A stretch of 64,000 nucleotides of DNA from Vicinamibacterales bacterium (GTDB lineage Bacteria; Acidobacteriota; Vicinamibacteria; Vicinamibacterales; CAVVIG01). The stretch lies in the NCBI GenBank assembly GCA_035693505.1, contig DASSGK010000567.1, forward strand, positions 4,734 through 68,733. Direction: 5' to 3'. The position numbers and the translations under genes are program-made. The notes beneath the pieces are model-generated. The model was not told the DNA's origin and did no database searches. It saw nothing but the letters and a program-made list of their open reading frames with translations. Positions 3,231 through 61,870 of this stretch are shown here, in pieces. Positions within the stretch are counted from its first letter, which is position 1. Every line of letters begins with the position of its first letter.

Positions 3231-5519
3231 CTAATTTCTGAGGGGCTTGCCGGTTTTCAACGTGTGCTGAATACGCTCCAGCGTCTTGCGCTCTCCGCAC
3301 AGTTTCAGGAACGCTTCGCGCTCCAGCTCGAGGATGTACTCCTCGCTGACCGTCGTCTGGTGCGGCAGTGCACCGCCCGATAACACGTTCGCGAGCGCGC
3401 GGCCGACGACCGCGTCGTGATCGCTGATGCGGCCGGCTCTCCATGCCAGGTGGACGCCGAGCTTGATCGCCGCGAGCACGGTCTGGCCGCCGGCCAGGAT
3501 CGCGGTCCGCCGCGCGGGACGCTGGTAGCCTTCCTGCACGCGCTCGAGCGCATACGCCTTGGCGTCGGCCATGAGGCGCTCGCGGTTCATCGTCACGCGA
3601 TCGGCGTCGCCCAGGAAACCGAGCCGTCTTGCATCCGCGGCGCTCGTCGACACTTTCGCAAATCCGATGGTCTCGAAGGCCTGCTGAACGAACGGCAGCA
3701 GGTCGGGGTGGTTGGCCGGCAGTCCGTGAACCGCTCGCGCCAGCATTTCCTTGGTGCCGCCGCCGCCGGGTATCAGGCCGACGCCGACTTCGACGAGTCC
3801 GATATAACTTTCCGCGGCAGCCTGGACTCGGTCGGCGTGCAATGCCATCTCGCAGCCGCCGCCGAGCGTCAGCCCGGCGGGTGCGACGATCACGGGAACG
3901 TCGGCGTAGCGCAGCGCCTGGGTCGCGCCCTGGAACGTGCGAATCATCAGGTCGATCTCGTCCCAGTTGCCCTCCTGCGCCTCCAGCAGGAGCAGCATCA
4001 GGTTGGCGCCCGCGGAGAAGTTCGCCGCGTCGTTTCCGACGACGAGCGCCGCGAAGTTCGCCGCAGCCTCTTTTACGCCGGCGTGGATCATTTGAATCTG
4101 ATCGCCGCCGATGGCGTTCATCTTCGCGTGGAACTCGAGGGCCAGGACGCCGTCGCCGAGGTCGACGAGGCTCGCACCGGAGTTCTTGCGGACGATCCTG
4201 TTCCGTTCACGCGCGGACTTCAGGATCCACAGGTCGCTCGGCTGAAGCGTTCCGTGATCGCTCGGCTGAAGCCTTCGCGCTACATTCGATGCTGAGGAGC
4301 CTTCCTGTAGCGCGAAGGCTTTAGCCGAGCGTTCGTCGGTGGCTTGAGCCGAGCGTTCACTGCCTGTGAGGGTCGAGCGCCCGAGCGCCTCGATGATCGC
4401 GAACGGGCCCAGCTCCCAGCCGAATCCCCATCGCATCACCCGGTCCACATCGTCAGGCGAGTGCGCGATGTCGGGAGTGACTTTGGCCGTGTACTCGAGG
4501 GTCGGACCCAGTGTCTCGCGCAGGAATTCGCCGACCTTGTCCTTGCCGTGATAGAGCGACTTGATCCGTTCGCCGGTGTCTTCGATCGACTTTCCGGCCT
4601 CGATGGATGCCAGGCGCGCCGGTTGCTTCGGCCGGTACTCGAGCGTCGCGGGATCGAGCGTCAGGATCTCGCTGCCATCCTTTGTCTTTACGCGCTTGTA
4701 GAAGCCTTGACCGGCTTTCTCGCCGATCATCCCCTTCTCGATCATCGCCTTCACGAACGCCGGCAGCTCGAAGCCGAGGTTCTTCGCGACGTGCGCCAGG
4801 ATGTCGATGCCGGCAATGTCCATCGTCCGGAACGTGGCGCTTTTGGGGCGCCCGAGCGCCGGCCCGGTGATCGCGTCAATTTCCTCGATCGTGTAGCGGC
4901 CGCTCTCGAGCGCCTTCAGCGTCAGCATCACGCCATACAGTGCGAGATGGTTGCCGATGAAGTTCGGCGTGTCCTTCGCGAGCACCACGCCTTTGCCGAG
5001 TCGATGATCCGTGAACTGTGAGACGCGTTCGACGACGTCCGGATCGGTTTCGGCCGTCGGGATGACTTCGACGAGATGAAGGTAGCGGGGCGGGTTGAAG
5101 AAGTGCGTGCCGAGCCAGTGTCGTCGAAAATCGTCGCTTCGCCCTTCAGCGAGCGTCGCAATCGGAATTCCGGACGTGTTCGACGACACGATCGTGCCGG
5201 GACGACGAACGGCGTCGACGCGCTCGAGCAGCGTGCGCTTGATGTCGAGCTGTTCGACGACTGCTTCCGTGATCCAGTCCACCGACGCCAGCGCCGCGAA
5301 GTCTGTGTCGAACCCACCTATCGTGATGCGGGTGGCGGTGTCGCCTGTAAAGAATGGATCGGGCTTGAGCGACCGCGCGCGCTTGAGCCCCTCGCGCGCC
5401 ACGTCCGCGGTCAGGTCGAGCAGCATCACCGGGACGCCCGCATTCGCGAAGTGCGCGGCGATCTGCGCGCCCATCGTTCCGGCTCCGAGAACCGCCACCG
5501 ATCGGATCGTGTGCGCCAT
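3231..5519 (-). CDS. fused 3-hydroxyacyl-CoA dehydrogenase / enoyl-CoA hydratase (FadB/FadN-like)
   Basis: N-terminal VAVLGAGTMGAQIAAH Rossmann motif and HAD domain, plus a C-terminal crotonase fold (GGGCEMALHAD). A 42-codon repeat-derived insert sits in the interdomain linker. Confidence 0.9.
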   Translation of the reverse strand: MAHTIRSVAVLGAGTMGAQIAAHFANAGVPVMLLDLTADVAREGLKRARSLKPDPFFTGDTATRITIGGFDTDFAALASVDWITEAVVEQLDIKRTLLERVDAVRRPGTIVSSNTSGIPIATLAEGRSDDFRRHWLGTHFFNPPRYLHLVEVIPTAETDPDVVERVSQFTDHRLGKGVVLAKDTPNFIGNHLALYGVMLTLKALESGRYTIEEIDAITGPALGRPKSATFRTMDIAGIDILAHVAKNLGFELPAFVKAMIEKGMIGEKAGQGFYKRVKTKDGSEILTLDPATLEYRPKQPARLASIEAGKSIEDTGERIKSLYHGKDKVGEFLRETLGPTLEYTAKVTPDIAHSPDDVDRVMRWGFGWELGPFAIIEALGRSTLTGSERSAQATDERSAKAFALQEGSSASNVARRLQPSDHGTLQPSDLWILKSARERNRIVRKNSGASLVDLGDGVLALEFHAKMNAIGGDQIQMIHAGVKEAAANFAALVVGNDAANFSAGANLMLLLLEAQEGNWDEIDLMIRTFQGATQALRYADVPVIVAPAGLTLGGGCEMALHADRVQAAAESYIGLVEVGVGLIPGGGGTKEMLARAVHGLPANHPDLLPFVQQAFETIGFAKVSTSAADARRLGFLGDADRVTMNRERLMADAKAYALERVQEGYQRPARRTAILAGGQTVLAAIKLGVHLAWRAGRISDHDAVVGRALANVLSGGALPHQTTVSEEYILELEREAFLKLCGERKTLERIQHTLKTGKPLRN
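4233..4358. repeat. 126-nt compound palindromic element embedded in frame in the fadB-like CDS
   Basis: Inner arms are 4259-4283 (CGCTCGGCTGAAGCCTTCGCGCTAC) and 4307-4331 (GTAGCGCGAAGGCTTTAGCCGAGCG), with one mismatch. Outer arms are CGCTCGGCTGAAGCG and TTGAGCCGAGCG. The element is 126 nt, exactly 42 codons. Confidence 0.9.
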
Positions 5520-44932: not shown

Positions 44933-45045
44933 TGAATTCTACACGTTGTGATGACCGTGTCCGCCTTCGCCGCCTTGCGGCTTCGGCGCGACACCTTCGC
45001 GTGGGCTTGCCACGCCGAAGCTCGCGCGGCAAGCGCGAGCGAAGG

Positions 45046-45118
45046 TGGGCCCACCAGGATTCGAACCTGGAACAGGCCGGTTATGAGCCGGCGGCTCTAA
45101 CCGTTGAGCTATGGGCCC
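45046..45118 (-). tRNA. tRNA-Met (anticodon CAT), elongator-type or possibly tRNA-Ile2
   Basis: The reverse complement folds as a cloverleaf: GGGCCCA TA GCTC AACGGTTA GAGC C GCCGG CTCATAA CCGGC CTGTT CCAGG TTCGAAT CCTGG TGGGCCC A. The G1-C72 pair argues against an initiator tRNA. CCA is not fully encoded (ACCt). Confidence 0.9.
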
Positions 45119-45122
45119 TTGG

Positions 45123-45206
45123 GAAGTATGAAGGAAGAAGTTAGAAGTGAGAAGGAAGAACTTTCCCGCTTCCACTTCTAACTTCTTCCTTCTCCCTTCT
45201 ACCTTC
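45123..45206. repeat. GAAGKNA heptamer hairpin immediately after rpoD (probable terminator)
   Basis: Perfect 20-bp stem between GAAGGAAGAAGTTAGAAGTG (45130-45149) and CACTTCTAACTTCTTCCTTC (45173-45192). Both arms are tandem heptamers. The pyrimidine arm runs into the rpoD stop codon. Confidence 0.85.
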
Positions 45207-59118: not shown

Positions 59119-59462
59119 TGCTCCGCACGCTCCTGAAACTGGCGGTCGTGGCGTTGGTGGCCAATGCGGCCTGGCACCTCTTCGGTGCCTACTCGCCGAA
59201 CTACCGGTTTCAGGACAGCGTTCAGTACGTCGCGCAGAATCGCGGGCAAATGAGCGACGAGACCTTGAGGGACAAGGTCGTCGAGCTCGCGGGCCAATTC
59301 GACGTGCCTGTCACCGCCAATGATGTGACGGTCAGCCAGCAGGGCACGCACACTCTCGTCGACGTCTCGTACGTGCGGCGAATCGAGCTGGCGCCCGGCT
59401 TCACGTATCCGTGGAATTTCTCCGTCCACGTCGACGTCATCAGTCTCTCGTCGCTAAAGTAG
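59118..59462 (+). CDS. small membrane-anchored protein, DUF4845-like
   Basis: N-terminal TM (LLKLAVVALVANAAW) followed by a YRFQDSVQYVAQ...DVTVSQQGTHTLVDVSYVRRIEL layout. It is translationally coupled to lepB (TGATG). Confidence 0.5.
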   Translation: MLRTLLKLAVVALVANAAWHLFGAYSPNYRFQDSVQYVAQNRGQMSDETLRDKVVELAGQFDVPVTANDVTVSQQGTHTLVDVSYVRRIELAPGFTYPWNFSVHVDVISLSSLK

Positions 59463-60068
59463 CGCGTCAGCCTCGTCGGCAGAGCGCGCGGCCTCCGCGC
59501 CCAGCCGGTTGATTTCCGCGGTCACAGAGCTGGTGTATTCGGCGTCGGTCAGGCTGCCGACGTTGATCTCGACGTTCAAGCGAGCTCCACGCAGTCCCGC
59601 GCGGAGCAAGGCGATCGCGACTCCCACATCGCTCCCAGCGGCTTTGTGCCCGTGCGCGGCGACGAGTGCGGCCTGCACGAGCGCCGCGGCCGAGAGGCGA
59701 ACGACGCCGAGCGGAACGTCGGTCGCCTCGCGCAGCGCGCGCTGAATGGCGGCCTTTCGCGCCCTCTGCTCGTCAGCGGACATCTTCGGCATCTTGTAGG
59801 CGGCGACGACGTGGTCGTAAGCCGCGGTGTCGGCGTCGACCGCTTCGGTCAAGCGGTCTCTGAGATCGGCGAGCACGGCACCCGCCGCTGTCAGCCGCGC
59901 ACGGTCATCGTCGGATCCCGTGCGTGTCTTCGGCAGGCCGGCGACCATCATCAGGAGTGAAGCGCCGATCGCCGACGAGAGGGCCGCGGCCGACCCGCCG
60001 CCGGGTGTCGGATCGGAGGAGCTGAATGCGGTCAGCAAATCCCGAACGGAGCGATCGATGAGCGACAT
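59454..60068 (-). CDS. cyclodeaminase/cyclohydrolase-family protein (FTCD C-terminal domain)
   Basis: FSSSDPTPGGGSAAALSSAIGASLLMMV is the characteristic N-terminal motif. It lies downstream of hutI. Confidence 0.85.
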   Translation of the reverse strand: MSLIDRSVRDLLTAFSSSDPTPGGGSAAALSSAIGASLLMMVAGLPKTRTGSDDDRARLTAAGAVLADLRDRLTEAVDADTAAYDHVVAAYKMPKMSADEQRARKAAIQRALREATDVPLGVVRLSAAALVQAALVAAHGHKAAGSDVGVAIALLRAGLRGARLNVEINVGSLTDAEYTSSVTAEINRLGAEAARSADEADALL

Positions 60069-60080
60069 ATGCGTTTCCAG

Positions 60081-60352
60081 GGAGCGGAGGGTACGGAGGA
60101 AACGGAATCACACAGAGGAACGGAGGAGCAGAGGACGAACGGAGCAGGATGTGCGCGACCGGCGGCCGGCGAAGCCGGCCTCGCACCGGGACAGAACGAA
60201 CGACGCAAAGCAAAACACACGGACTCAAGTTTTTGCTTTGCGTCGTTCGTTCTATCCCGGTGGCCCGCGTTGCGGGCCGGTCGCGCACGCATCTCTTCTC
60301 TGCTCGTCTCTGCTGCTCCGCTGCTCTGTGTGATCCCGTTCCCTCCGTCTCC
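60081..60352. repeat. 272-nt compound palindrome (cruciform / MITE-like) between hutI and the cyclodeaminase gene
   Basis: Apical perfect 23-bp stem (60193-60215 with 60231-60253). A 7-bp CACCGGG/CCCGGTG stem. Two side hairpins (GGCCGGC-GAA-GCCGGCC and GGCCCGC-GTT-GCGGGCC). A 12-bp GTGCGCGACCGG/CCGGTCGCGCAC stem. Imperfect outer arms of about 65-70 nt share AACGGRATCACACAGAG. Confidence 0.85.
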
Positions 60353-61603
60353 TCAGTTACCAATGACGACCTTGCCGCGTTTGATCACGGCACGTATCGT
60401 GTCGGCGCCGACGCGGATCAAGTTGATGGCGGGGCCGTGGACGACGACGGCGTCCATCTGCTTGCCCAGTTCCAGGCTGCCGATGCGATCCTGGCGGCCC
60501 AGCGAACACGCCGCGTTGATGGTCGCCGCGACCAGTGCCTCTTCGAAGGTGAGGTGCATGCCGAAGCAGGCCAGCGTCATCGCAAACGGGATCGACGGCG
60601 AGTAGCCGGCGCCAGGGTTGACGTCGGTGGCCAGCGCCACGGCGACGCCGCTCGCCATCAGCATGCGCGCCGGCGCAAAGCGTCCCAGCTTGAGATAGAA
60701 CGACGCGATTGGCAACAGCGTGGCGACCACGCCGGAGGCCGCCAGGCCAGCCGCATTCACCTCCTCGATGAAGATCAAGTGATCCGCTGATCGCGCACCG
60801 ACTTCAGCCGCGACGACCGATCCGCCGCTGGACGCGAACTCGTCGGCGTGAATTCGCGGCGCGAGACCCGCGGCGCGGCCGGCTTGCAGGATCTCGCGCG
60901 ATTCATCCGGCGTGAATACGCCTGTCTCGCAGAACACGTCGCACGATTCCGCCGAGCCTTCGCGGGCGACGGCCGGAATCATTTCGTGCACGACGAGATC
61001 CACGTAATCGCGACGCCGATGGCGATACTCGACCGGCACTTCGTGTGCGCCCATGAATGTCGGCGATATCTCAATCGGATGCGTCGCGGCGAGCATCCGA
61101 ATCGTTCGCAGCATCTTCAGCTCGCCGACGGTCGTGAGCGCGTAGCCGCTCTTGGCTTCGCACGTCGTCGTGCCGCAGCGCAGCATCTCGTCCAGTCGCT
61201 GTCTTGTGACAGCCGCGAGATCCTCGCCAGACGCAGCACGCGTCGCCTTCACGCTGCCGACGATCCCACCTCCCTCGGCGGCGATTTCAGCATAGGTGGC
61301 GCCGGCGAGGCGACGACGGAGTTCGTTGCGCCGATCGCCGGCGAAGACGACATGCGTGTGGGGATCCACGAAGCCGGGGACGACGGCACCGCCTTCCGCG
61401 TCGACGACAAGAGCAGCGTCAGCCAGAGTGCCGTTGCGGCGCCAGTCCGCCTCGTCGCCCACGAAGACGATCGTTCCGCGATGAGCGGCGATGACGGCCT
61501 TCGGCCTGGAGACCGCGTCTGCCTGGCGCGGTCCGATTCGCGGCGCAGGACCGGCGCAGGTGAGGACCTCCGATGTGTTGTGGATCAGGAAATCGGCGAC
61601 CAC
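60353..61603 (-). CDS. hutI: imidazolonepropionase
   Basis: Amidohydrolase fold with PGFVDPHTHVVFAG, SGYAL, ADEF and DVNPG motifs. GTG start. Confidence 0.9.
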   Translation of the reverse strand: MVADFLIHNTSEVLTCAGPAPRIGPRQADAVSRPKAVIAAHRGTIVFVGDEADWRRNGTLADAALVVDAEGGAVVPGFVDPHTHVVFAGDRRNELRRRLAGATYAEIAAEGGGIVGSVKATRAASGEDLAAVTRQRLDEMLRCGTTTCEAKSGYALTTVGELKMLRTIRMLAATHPIEISPTFMGAHEVPVEYRHRRRDYVDLVVHEMIPAVAREGSAESCDVFCETGVFTPDESREILQAGRAAGLAPRIHADEFASSGGSVVAAEVGARSADHLIFIEEVNAAGLAASGVVATLLPIASFYLKLGRFAPARMLMASGVAVALATDVNPGAGYSPSIPFAMTLACFGMHLTFEEALVAATINAACSLGRQDRIGSLELGKQMDAVVVHGPAINLIRVGADTIRAVIKRGKVVIGN

Positions 61604-61609
61604 GACGCC

Positions 61610-61870
61610 CTATTGTAGGGCGAGCGCGTGAATCTGTTCCGCGGTGACGCCGTCGATCGCCACGCGCTTCTGGCGGCTGCGATCGCCGCTGACGATGCGC
61701 ACGGCCCGTCTGGGGACACGAAGCGCGGCGGAGAGAAACCGGACGAGGGCGATGTTGGCGGCGTCGTCGACCGGCGGCGCGGCGATGCGCACGACGAGGA
61801 CGTCATCCCTGAACCCCGCGCATTCCGTTTTGCGGGCTCGCGGGATGACGCGGACGTCGAGCGTGATCAC
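61610..61870 (-). CDS. yggU: DUF167 (YggU) family protein
   Basis: LDVRVIPRARK...VRIAAPPVDDAANIALVRFLS...VSGDRSRQKRV pattern. The GTG at 61870 overlaps the divIVA stop (GTGA). Confidence 0.8.
   Translation of the reverse strand: MITLDVRVIPRARKTECAGFRDDVLVVRIAAPPVDDAANIALVRFLSAALRVPRRAVRIVSGDRSRQKRVAIDGVTAEQIHALALQ

Follow-up and report, generated by a model that had tools for sequence, protein, structure and literature searches.

A nested palindrome between two histidine-utilisation genes and its likely kinship with a nuclease-associated repeat cassette of the Vicinamibacterales

A genome of the Vicinamibacterales (Acidobacteriota; GenBank assembly GCA_035693505.1) carries a large nested palindrome between hutI, which encodes imidazolonepropionase, and a downstream gene for an FchA-like cyclodeaminase or cyclohydrolase (here fchA). 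The stretch analysed comprises 64,000 nucleotides (nt) of contig DASSGK010000567.1 (positions 4,734 to 68,733; hereafter the window, with positions counted from its first letter). The locus raises the question of what such a structure is doing between two co-oriented histidine-utilisation genes. The original prediction, made from the letters of the window, favoured a MITE (miniature inverted-repeat transposable element) or a large structured RNA over a simple terminator. From the comparisons reported here, the palindrome is likely to be a non-autonomous copy, lacking an open reading frame (ORF), of a nuclease-associated palindromic cassette of the Vicinamibacterales (Acidobacteria subgroup 6), and it is probably selfish DNA rather than a switch controlling the use of histidine.

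To our knowledge, how bacterial extragenic palindromes arise is understood in one system only, that of REP (repetitive extragenic palindromic) sequences and their doublets (REPINs) with the REP-associated tyrosine transposases (RAYTs). The Vicinamibacterales are abundant, little-studied soil Acidobacteria. In this order a structurally richer palindromic repeat family is delineated here and linked to a very large protein family lacking an assigned function (GxxExxY, PF13366).

A repeat family with a conserved architecture

The 20-mer GGRAACGGRATCACACAGAG, present on both arms of the palindrome, was scanned across one genome per species in 185,579 species. It was found at 17 loci in eight metagenome-assembled genomes (MAGs), all Acidobacteriota (Vicinamibacterales, gp6), with no more than five loci per genome. 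By our own arithmetic about four matches would be expected by chance, and chance matches would not share one order. Scanning metagenomes with the same 20-mer gave at least 120 loci, mainly from soil and rhizosphere, and a scan of viral contigs for the core gave no copies. Relatives of the window element are MAG or metagenome contigs throughout. An arm profile search (nhmmer) recovered 267 arms, 108 of which paired into elements; on a rough estimate, copy number is in the order of tens of elements per genome. The original prediction had named a single-copy element with no conservation in relatives as the outcome that would speak against it; the element is multicopy and its architecture is conserved. 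Within the window itself, as had been predicted, the element stands alone: searches with the core pattern, apical-stem pattern and arm profile returned only its own two arms.

The arms are about 70 nt long around a GATCACACAGAG core and consist of purine-rich units of about 9 nt in series (consensus GAGGGAACG GAGGnnACG GAGGGAACGG GATCACACA GAGmAACG GAGCAACG GAGAAGAAC). A conserved AG marks where homology begins, and copies differ in how many terminal units they have. The distance between paired arms is bimodal, at 5–113 nt in short hairpins and 153–204 nt in long forms of about 290 nt, which are represented by 30 copies, 20 of them unique. Members of the family enclose nothing (short forms), a four-helix interior (long forms) or a small gene of the GxxExxY (PDDEXK_3) family. 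Another Vicinamibacterales MAG (L015, 3433–3760 and 7492–7708) holds a related G-rich palindrome built of GGGGGAACG or CCCCGT units with a large interior, and a 13.7-kb contig (L112, 4400–5350 and 11124–12276) holds at least four palindromic elements together with a GxxExxY gene, one of its arms having five tandem GGGATCACGAC-like units.

The window copy is an ORF-less long form. The predicted nested palindrome at 60081–60352 is real and every feature described for it is present in the sequence, the element being slightly longer when judged by homology: alignment of 21 arms and 18 long forms places it at about 60079–60361. As predicted, its imperfect outer arms are GA-rich on the left and CT-rich on the right, with 54 nt (60080–60133 and 60308–60361) that are 81% complementary. 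The arm on the fchA side (60079–60150) is GA-rich on the plus strand, with GAGnnAACG-like units of about 9 nt, and was matched by the arm profile at 60068–60135 (E = 1.1e-14); that on the hutI side (60289–60361) is GA-rich on the minus strand, ends in the terminal unit GGTAACTGAGG and was matched at 60368–60302 (E = 4.7e-15). Both share the core AACGGRATCACACAGAG, at 60101–60117 (plus) and 60324–60340 (minus). The family-defining 20-mer found in the pattern scans is GGAAACGGAATCACACAGAG at 60098–60117 on the plus strand and GGGAACGGGATCACACAGAG at 60324–60343 on the minus strand.

Inside the arms lies a perfect stem, P2, formed by GTGCGCGACCGGC (60151–60163) and GCCGGTCGCGCAC (60276–60288); it measures 13 bp, one more than had been described. 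Two small hairpins follow, GGCCGGC-gaa-GCCGGCC at 60164–60180 and GCCCGC-gtt-GCGGGC at about 60263–60277, the latter sharing 2 nt with P2. In the orientation of the family, in which the window element reads on the minus strand, these are hairpins C and A, respectively. Between them stands the long hairpin B (60184–60262), whose 32-nt arms (60184–60215 and 60231–60262) are 97% complementary around a 15-nt loop (60216–60230) and resolve into the predicted 7-bp stem (7–8 bp), one mismatch and the 23-bp apical stem.

The minimum free energy of the element is −202.9 kcal/mol on the minus strand and −194.9 kcal/mol on the plus strand. Dinucleotide shuffles folded at −108 and −113 kcal/mol (standard deviation 5.4), giving z-scores of −17.6 (minus) and −15.2 (plus), and none of 200 shuffles matched the element.

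Eighteen long forms, including the window copy, align over their full length and can be oriented. Each has the order 5′ arm, P2, hairpin A, hairpin B, hairpin C, P2′ and 3′ arm. In the RNAalifold consensus 93% of cells are paired, and compensatory changes occur at 34 pairs (151 cells), a value reached by none of 500 shuffles; when the partner was slid by one to three columns as a control, only about 40% of cells paired. Nine of the 11 pairs of P2 show compensatory change across the family, and hairpin B varies in sequence among copies with its pairing kept. There are three subfamilies, and variation runs together across the modules, the pattern expected of replicating lineages in which the structure is important to the element itself. 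The folding and covariation analysis proposed with the original prediction thus returned a conserved architecture with strong covariation. The Rfam search proposed with it assigned the element to none of the families: a scan at permissive E-values of the region and seven related loci gave only sub-threshold noise from microRNA and small nucleolar RNA families.

GxxExxY genes between the arms

In one relative (L036) the arms stand 818 nt apart and enclose an ORF that matches GxxExxY (TIGR04256, E = 1.4e-39) and PDDEXK_3 (PF13366, E = 2.8e-38), together with modules resembling hairpins A and B. Searches with tblastn located further GxxExxY copies in L118 and L112, beside elements or within them; the matches in L097 and L008 are truncated remnants. 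The order in L097 is 5′ arm, left half of P2, hairpin A, the start of hairpin B, an internally deleted ORF and 3′ arm, so that interior modules of the window type and the GxxExxY ORF stand in one element. The association also appeared when sampled in reverse: two homologues were picked by protein similarity alone, and members of the arm family flank both, with the ORF enclosed in a single palindrome in L146 and set between two complete short palindromes in L152. The same arms as those of the window therefore flank GxxExxY ORFs in L036, L146, L152, L112 and L118. The ORF lies at hairpin C in L036 and beside hairpin A or B in L097 and L008. These differing positions, and a mismatch in stem polarity, speak against the idea that hairpin C is a collapsed stem that once flanked the ORF. 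An (A/G)AT(T/C)TGC(A/G)ACA-like motif, noticed by eye only about 60–90 nt 5′ of the GxxExxY starts in L036, L112, L118, L146 and L152, could be a promoter element.

Beyond the Acidobacteriota, GxxExxY genes on plasmids or megaplasmids were flanked by purine-rich inverted repeats of 16–35 nt in five of seven cases, from Gemmatimonadota, Bacteroidota (two), Alphaproteobacteria and Spirochaetota. These repeats have a TCAC..CAGAG flavour, their likeness to the core of the window element being judged by eye only. In Gemmatirosa, TGAACCGCAGAGGACGCAGAGGGCCGCAGAGGAGA forms a complete palindrome on either side of the ORF; in Bacteroides finegoldii the gene is flanked by TTCACCACAGAGGACGCAGAGGACACGGAG; and the genes of Bernardetia, Sphingomonas and Treponema have comparable flanking repeats. 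Where the plasmids are annotated, GxxExxY forms a compact cassette with co-oriented genes on either side (fabD and fabG, or radA and its neighbour). The fabD/fabG example, on the Sphingomonas parapaucimobilis plasmid NZ_CP155749.1 (L156, 1159–1587), has 25-nt flanking inverted repeats and sits in a conserved fatty-acid synthesis gene cluster. Searches of open-access papers on GxxExxY, TIGR04256, PF13366 and Acidobacteria repeats turned up no account of the repeat association.

The proteins enclosed by the arms are 130–145 aa long and match TIGR04256 and PF13366, a PD-(D/E)XK family, only. Their GxxExxY motif (G29, E32, Y35) and nuclease motif D..ExK (D72, E82, K84) are invariant or nearly so. 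An AlphaFold (AF2) model built from a diverse alignment reached a predicted local distance difference test (pLDDT) value of 91.6; a model from close homologues only (pLDDT 54.5) was not used. The best match of the former model among solved structures was the Cas4 nuclease SSO0001 (E = 6e-4, template modelling (TM) score 0.54), followed by the nuclease domains of AdnAB and of lambda exonuclease/RecE. Sequence searches of PDB, PADLOC and PHROGs with the nuclease gave nothing useful. The family comprises 18,044 clusters at 50% identity (E ≤ 0.001), and a 2012 superfamily survey lists its function as 'unknown' (PMC3424549). Some members of about 275–295 aa (P0241–P0243, P0246 and similar) have two GxxExxY domains in tandem.

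These associations suggest a mechanism. The nuclease, with its Cas4/RecB-like fold and intact D..ExK motif, would act on DNA, recognising either the arms or the hairpin junction, and would drive copying into new sites, in a manner resembling homing or REPIN/RAYT; ORF-less copies would arise when the ORF is lost and part of the palindrome deleted. Mobilisation of the repeats by the nuclease has, in our estimate, close to an even chance, a little on the lower side. A wider proposal, put forward tentatively and with rather more doubt than confidence, is that the GxxExxY/PDDEXK_3 proteins (about 18,000 clusters) are the dedicated nucleases of a widespread, hitherto unrecognised class of mobile palindromic cassettes in at least five bacterial phyla, a second palindrome-generating system independent of REPIN/RAYT. 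Each such nuclease would recognise its own arms or junction, copy the cassette beside stop codons without duplication and spawn ORF-less palindromes.

The same arrangements could be produced if GxxExxY were a passenger or an independent selfish gene that lands in or beside palindromes, the repeats being spread by a transposase, by recombination, or by slippage and a switch of template during replication. Arrangements differ, the ORF being enclosed in a single palindrome in L036 and L146 and set between two complete ones in L112 and L152; copies without an ORF are in the majority; and the compact cassettes between housekeeping genes (fabD/fabG) in other phyla show that the gene is itself mobile. 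This account is nevertheless improbable, since the association holds in both sampling directions and recurs with different repeat sequences in five phyla, the pattern that was used to assign RAYTs to REPINs, and since in L097 the ORF shares an element with interior modules specific to the family.

Insertion sites and the hutI junction

The termini of 78 unique elements showed no consistent target-site duplication. A TCGCTCA-like string is common to the empty and filled hutI sites, but it is already repeated inside the empty site and is therefore uninformative. Where genes were called on both sides, 13 elements lay in convergent, 22 in tandem and two in divergent contexts. Stop codons are close by: of 85 adjacent ones, 51 are separated from an element terminus by 15 nt or less and 31 by 5 nt or less, an adjacency to gene 3′ ends also described for REPs (PMC3733652). 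In tandem contexts there is no strand asymmetry, the transcribed strand having 99 G:U pairs and the opposite strand 104, and the interior is in sense orientation in one case (the window) and antisense in three (L048, L138 and L054). The equal G:U counts and an orientation independent of transcription argue against a strand-specific RNA function.

Close HutI homologues were compared together with their contigs, the percentages that follow being HutI identity to the window. The same long element is present at 98% (L018), where the contig ends within it. At 94% (L019) the arms, P2 and one small hairpin remain, with hairpins B and C missing, and what is left of the interior is inverted relative to the window (alignment scores of 40 and 30 in reverse complement against 20.5 and 23 in direct orientation). 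A short form in a spacer of 142 nt occurs at 91% (L020), and at 90% (L021) the interior differs and the contig again ends within the element. A 46-nt remnant of one arm is left at 87% (L022) and a degenerate 48-nt remnant at 82% (L023); a 132-nt copy is found at 81% (L024), and at 80% (L025) there is no spacer, hutI and the FTCD_C gene overlapping with the ATG inside hutI. Long, medium, short, remnant and empty states at one junction mark an old, decaying insertion. The element entered an overlapping hutI/fchA pair in an ancestor and was later shortened, flipped or nearly lost in sister lineages, the operon being left undisturbed.

Two further observations were made on these contigs. In L024 (11240–11290) the hutI ORF reads 12 codons into the arm, giving a HutI of 428 aa, so that the repeat supplies coding sequence. 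The contigs of L018 and L021 end in the element just 3′ of hutI, and most GxxExxY homologues are on very short contigs, which would fit a repeat that breaks short-read assemblies.

A dedicated RNA of histidine utilisation (a riboswitch, attenuator or small RNA between hutI and the cyclodeaminase gene) was suggested by the strong fold of an element that takes up the spacer between two hut genes. The probability of such an RNA is practically negligible: the same element stands beside dozens of unrelated genes and has no Rfam match, and at this junction it is shortened or vestigial in some relatives and, at 80% HutI identity, absent from between overlapping genes. The lack of strand asymmetry and the flipping of the interior between orthologues also count against it. 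The element has no dedicated role in histidine utilisation.

Another possibility is that the host has adopted the repeat as an RNA hairpin, acting as a terminator or attenuator, 3′-end stabiliser or RNase III site that sets hutI against fchA expression, in the way of REP sequences and bacterial interspersed mosaic elements (BIMEs) or of enterobacterial repetitive intergenic consensus (ERIC) sequences; this would be compatible with a selfish origin. Its fold is extremely stable on both strands, gene 3′ ends are favoured and divergent contexts rare (2 of 37), and a copy has been kept at the junction down to about 81% HutI identity. We regard a host role of this kind as unlikely. Terminator-like sites were absent from both strands of 59300–61700, with no T-run after any stem, and in lacking a U-tract the palindrome is, as had been predicted, not a simple terminator. 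Two relatives keep only a one-armed remnant of 46–48 nt and a third lacks the element, in each case with the operon intact; G:U pairs are balanced, and the orientation of the interior is unrelated to transcription and flips between orthologues. The 3′-end bias does not demonstrate function, since selfish REP-type repeats share it (PMC3733652). A secondary role as an mRNA hairpin is required by none of the results, and the remnant and empty states argue against it.

Both flanking genes lie on the minus strand. The upstream hutI (60353–61603; TIGR01224, E = 1.8e-129; homologues 416 aa) has its stop codon inside the element terminus, GGTAACTGAGG (60351–60361, minus strand) holding its last two sense codons and stop (GGT AAC TGA). 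The downstream gene (59454–60068) encodes an FTCD_C/FchA-like cyclodeaminase or cyclohydrolase of 204 aa, which scored 155.6 bits with NF045657, below its cut-off, PF04961 being matched in an orthologue. The palindrome had been described as filling the gap between two co-oriented genes; the co-orientation stands, and the element in fact overlaps the end of hutI and leaves 12 nt, GGAAACGCATAT (minus strand), before the ATG of fchA. In a hut transcript it would fold into a very stable hairpin that would set the stop codon of hutI beside the start of fchA, which lies 12 nt past the stem. This juxtaposition at the stem base may have preserved coupling and may be the reason that the insertion was tolerated.

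Several points weigh against reading the window palindrome as a derivative of a nuclease cassette. The 64-kb window holds no GxxExxY gene by tblastn, and it is for want of an ORF or a GxxExxY gene nearby that the copy is filed as a non-autonomous derivative. Independent ORF-bearing loci are few (three and two remnants selected by arm, two of two selected by protein, and five of seven in other phyla). Mobilisation by the nuclease is argued from association, and the gene may be a passenger or may favour palindromes for its own insertion. The core was retrieved by exact pattern, which overstates its conservation; partner arms, which were not selected by pattern, carry substitutions in it. Covariation does not reveal whether the hairpin under selection is DNA or RNA, genes in the metagenome loci were called by a heuristic frame rule (GC1 > GC2), and the tight adjacency to stop codons and the persistence to about 81% HutI identity also fit a benefit to the host.

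Should the nuclease mobilise the repeats, a large protein family would gain a function and the spread of non-autonomous elements a new mechanism, and recurrent breaks in soil metagenome assemblies, such as those in L018 and L021, would be explained. The family offers testable material in defined arm, core and four-way-junction substrates and in a single locus whose natural states range from full to empty. For annotation, such intergenic hairpins should not be taken as locus-specific regulators.

Comparison with known systems

With its long terminal inverted arms, small size, many copies and ORF-bearing and ORF-less versions, the family resembles a classical MITE, in which an insertion sequence reduced by deletion is mobilised by a DDE transposase through its terminal inverted repeats. 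The predicted MITE was borne out as far as a multicopy, MITE-like non-autonomous repeat family is concerned; the target-site duplication of a classical MITE is absent. Among the loci retrieved, no parent DDE transposase with the same ends was found, the only type of ORF inside the arms being the PD-(D/E)XK protein, which is not a known transposase, and the termini have variable numbers of 9-nt units. A classical MITE is therefore very unlikely.

The REPIN/RAYT systems (REPtrons; TIRtron/TIRYT; PMC3733652, PMC3116915) are alike in being multicopy, extragenic inverted-doublet palindromes without target-site duplication, concentrated near stop codons in tandem and convergent gene contexts, with one small gene flanked by its cognate repeats and most copies non-autonomous. 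The window, moreover, contains GTAG-tagged REP-like repeats. At 1617–1735 there are three copies, two direct and one inverted, of GGTCCGGCTAAAGCCGGACACTACC (reverse complement GTAGTGTCCGGCTTTAGCCGGAC), a repeat with 37 matches in 16 fetched sources at up to four mismatches; at 4235–4355 a second such repeat, GTAGCGCGAAGGCTTTAGCCGAGCG, forms a palindrome with 50-nt arms and has 15 matches in eight sources. These are separate families unrelated in sequence to the element. REP sequences are 20–40 nt long with a GTAG or CGTC tag, whereas the present arms are about 70 nt of 9-nt units ending in AGnnAACGGAGG and are untagged; the long forms add a conserved four-helix interior; and RAYT is an HUH/Y1 transposase, whereas the flanked gene is of the GxxExxY (PF13366, PDDEXK_3) type. 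That the element is a REP or REPIN moved by a RAYT accordingly has very little probability. A further hairpin in the window, GA-rich and CT-rich (GAAGGAAGAAGTTAGAAGTG...) at 45123–45206, adjoins a tRNA-Met gene (45044–45118, minus strand); similar sequences in L023, L024, L025 and L037 suggest that it may belong to another purine-rich palindrome family.

Correia elements of Neisseria and the ERIC sequences, or intergenic repeat units (IRU), of enterobacteria are likewise intergenic inverted repeats of 100–300 bp that are co-transcribed, can form long RNA hairpins and have size variants through internal deletion or insertion. Correia and ERIC elements duplicate TA on insertion, whereas the present family makes no target-site duplication. 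The intervening sequences of 23S rRNA genes (Coxiella, PMC4990558) are also selfish palindromic insertions in which a long stem joins the flanks and an interior ORF can be lost. They sit in an rRNA helix and are excised by RNase III, whereas the present family lies between protein-coding genes, and the ORF of the Coxiella sequence is S23p and not GxxExxY.

Free-standing homing-endonuclease genes and Cas4/RecB-type nucleases share with GxxExxY the form of small nuclease genes carried as compact cassettes between conserved genes. They differ in that GxxExxY has no intron or intein context, is shorter than Cas4 and resembles it only modestly in fold (TM score 0.54). Against the GxxExxY-flanking palindromic cassette delineated here, the window copy is without the gene and has the inverted arms, the purine-rich 9-nt units and the TCAC..CAGAG core.

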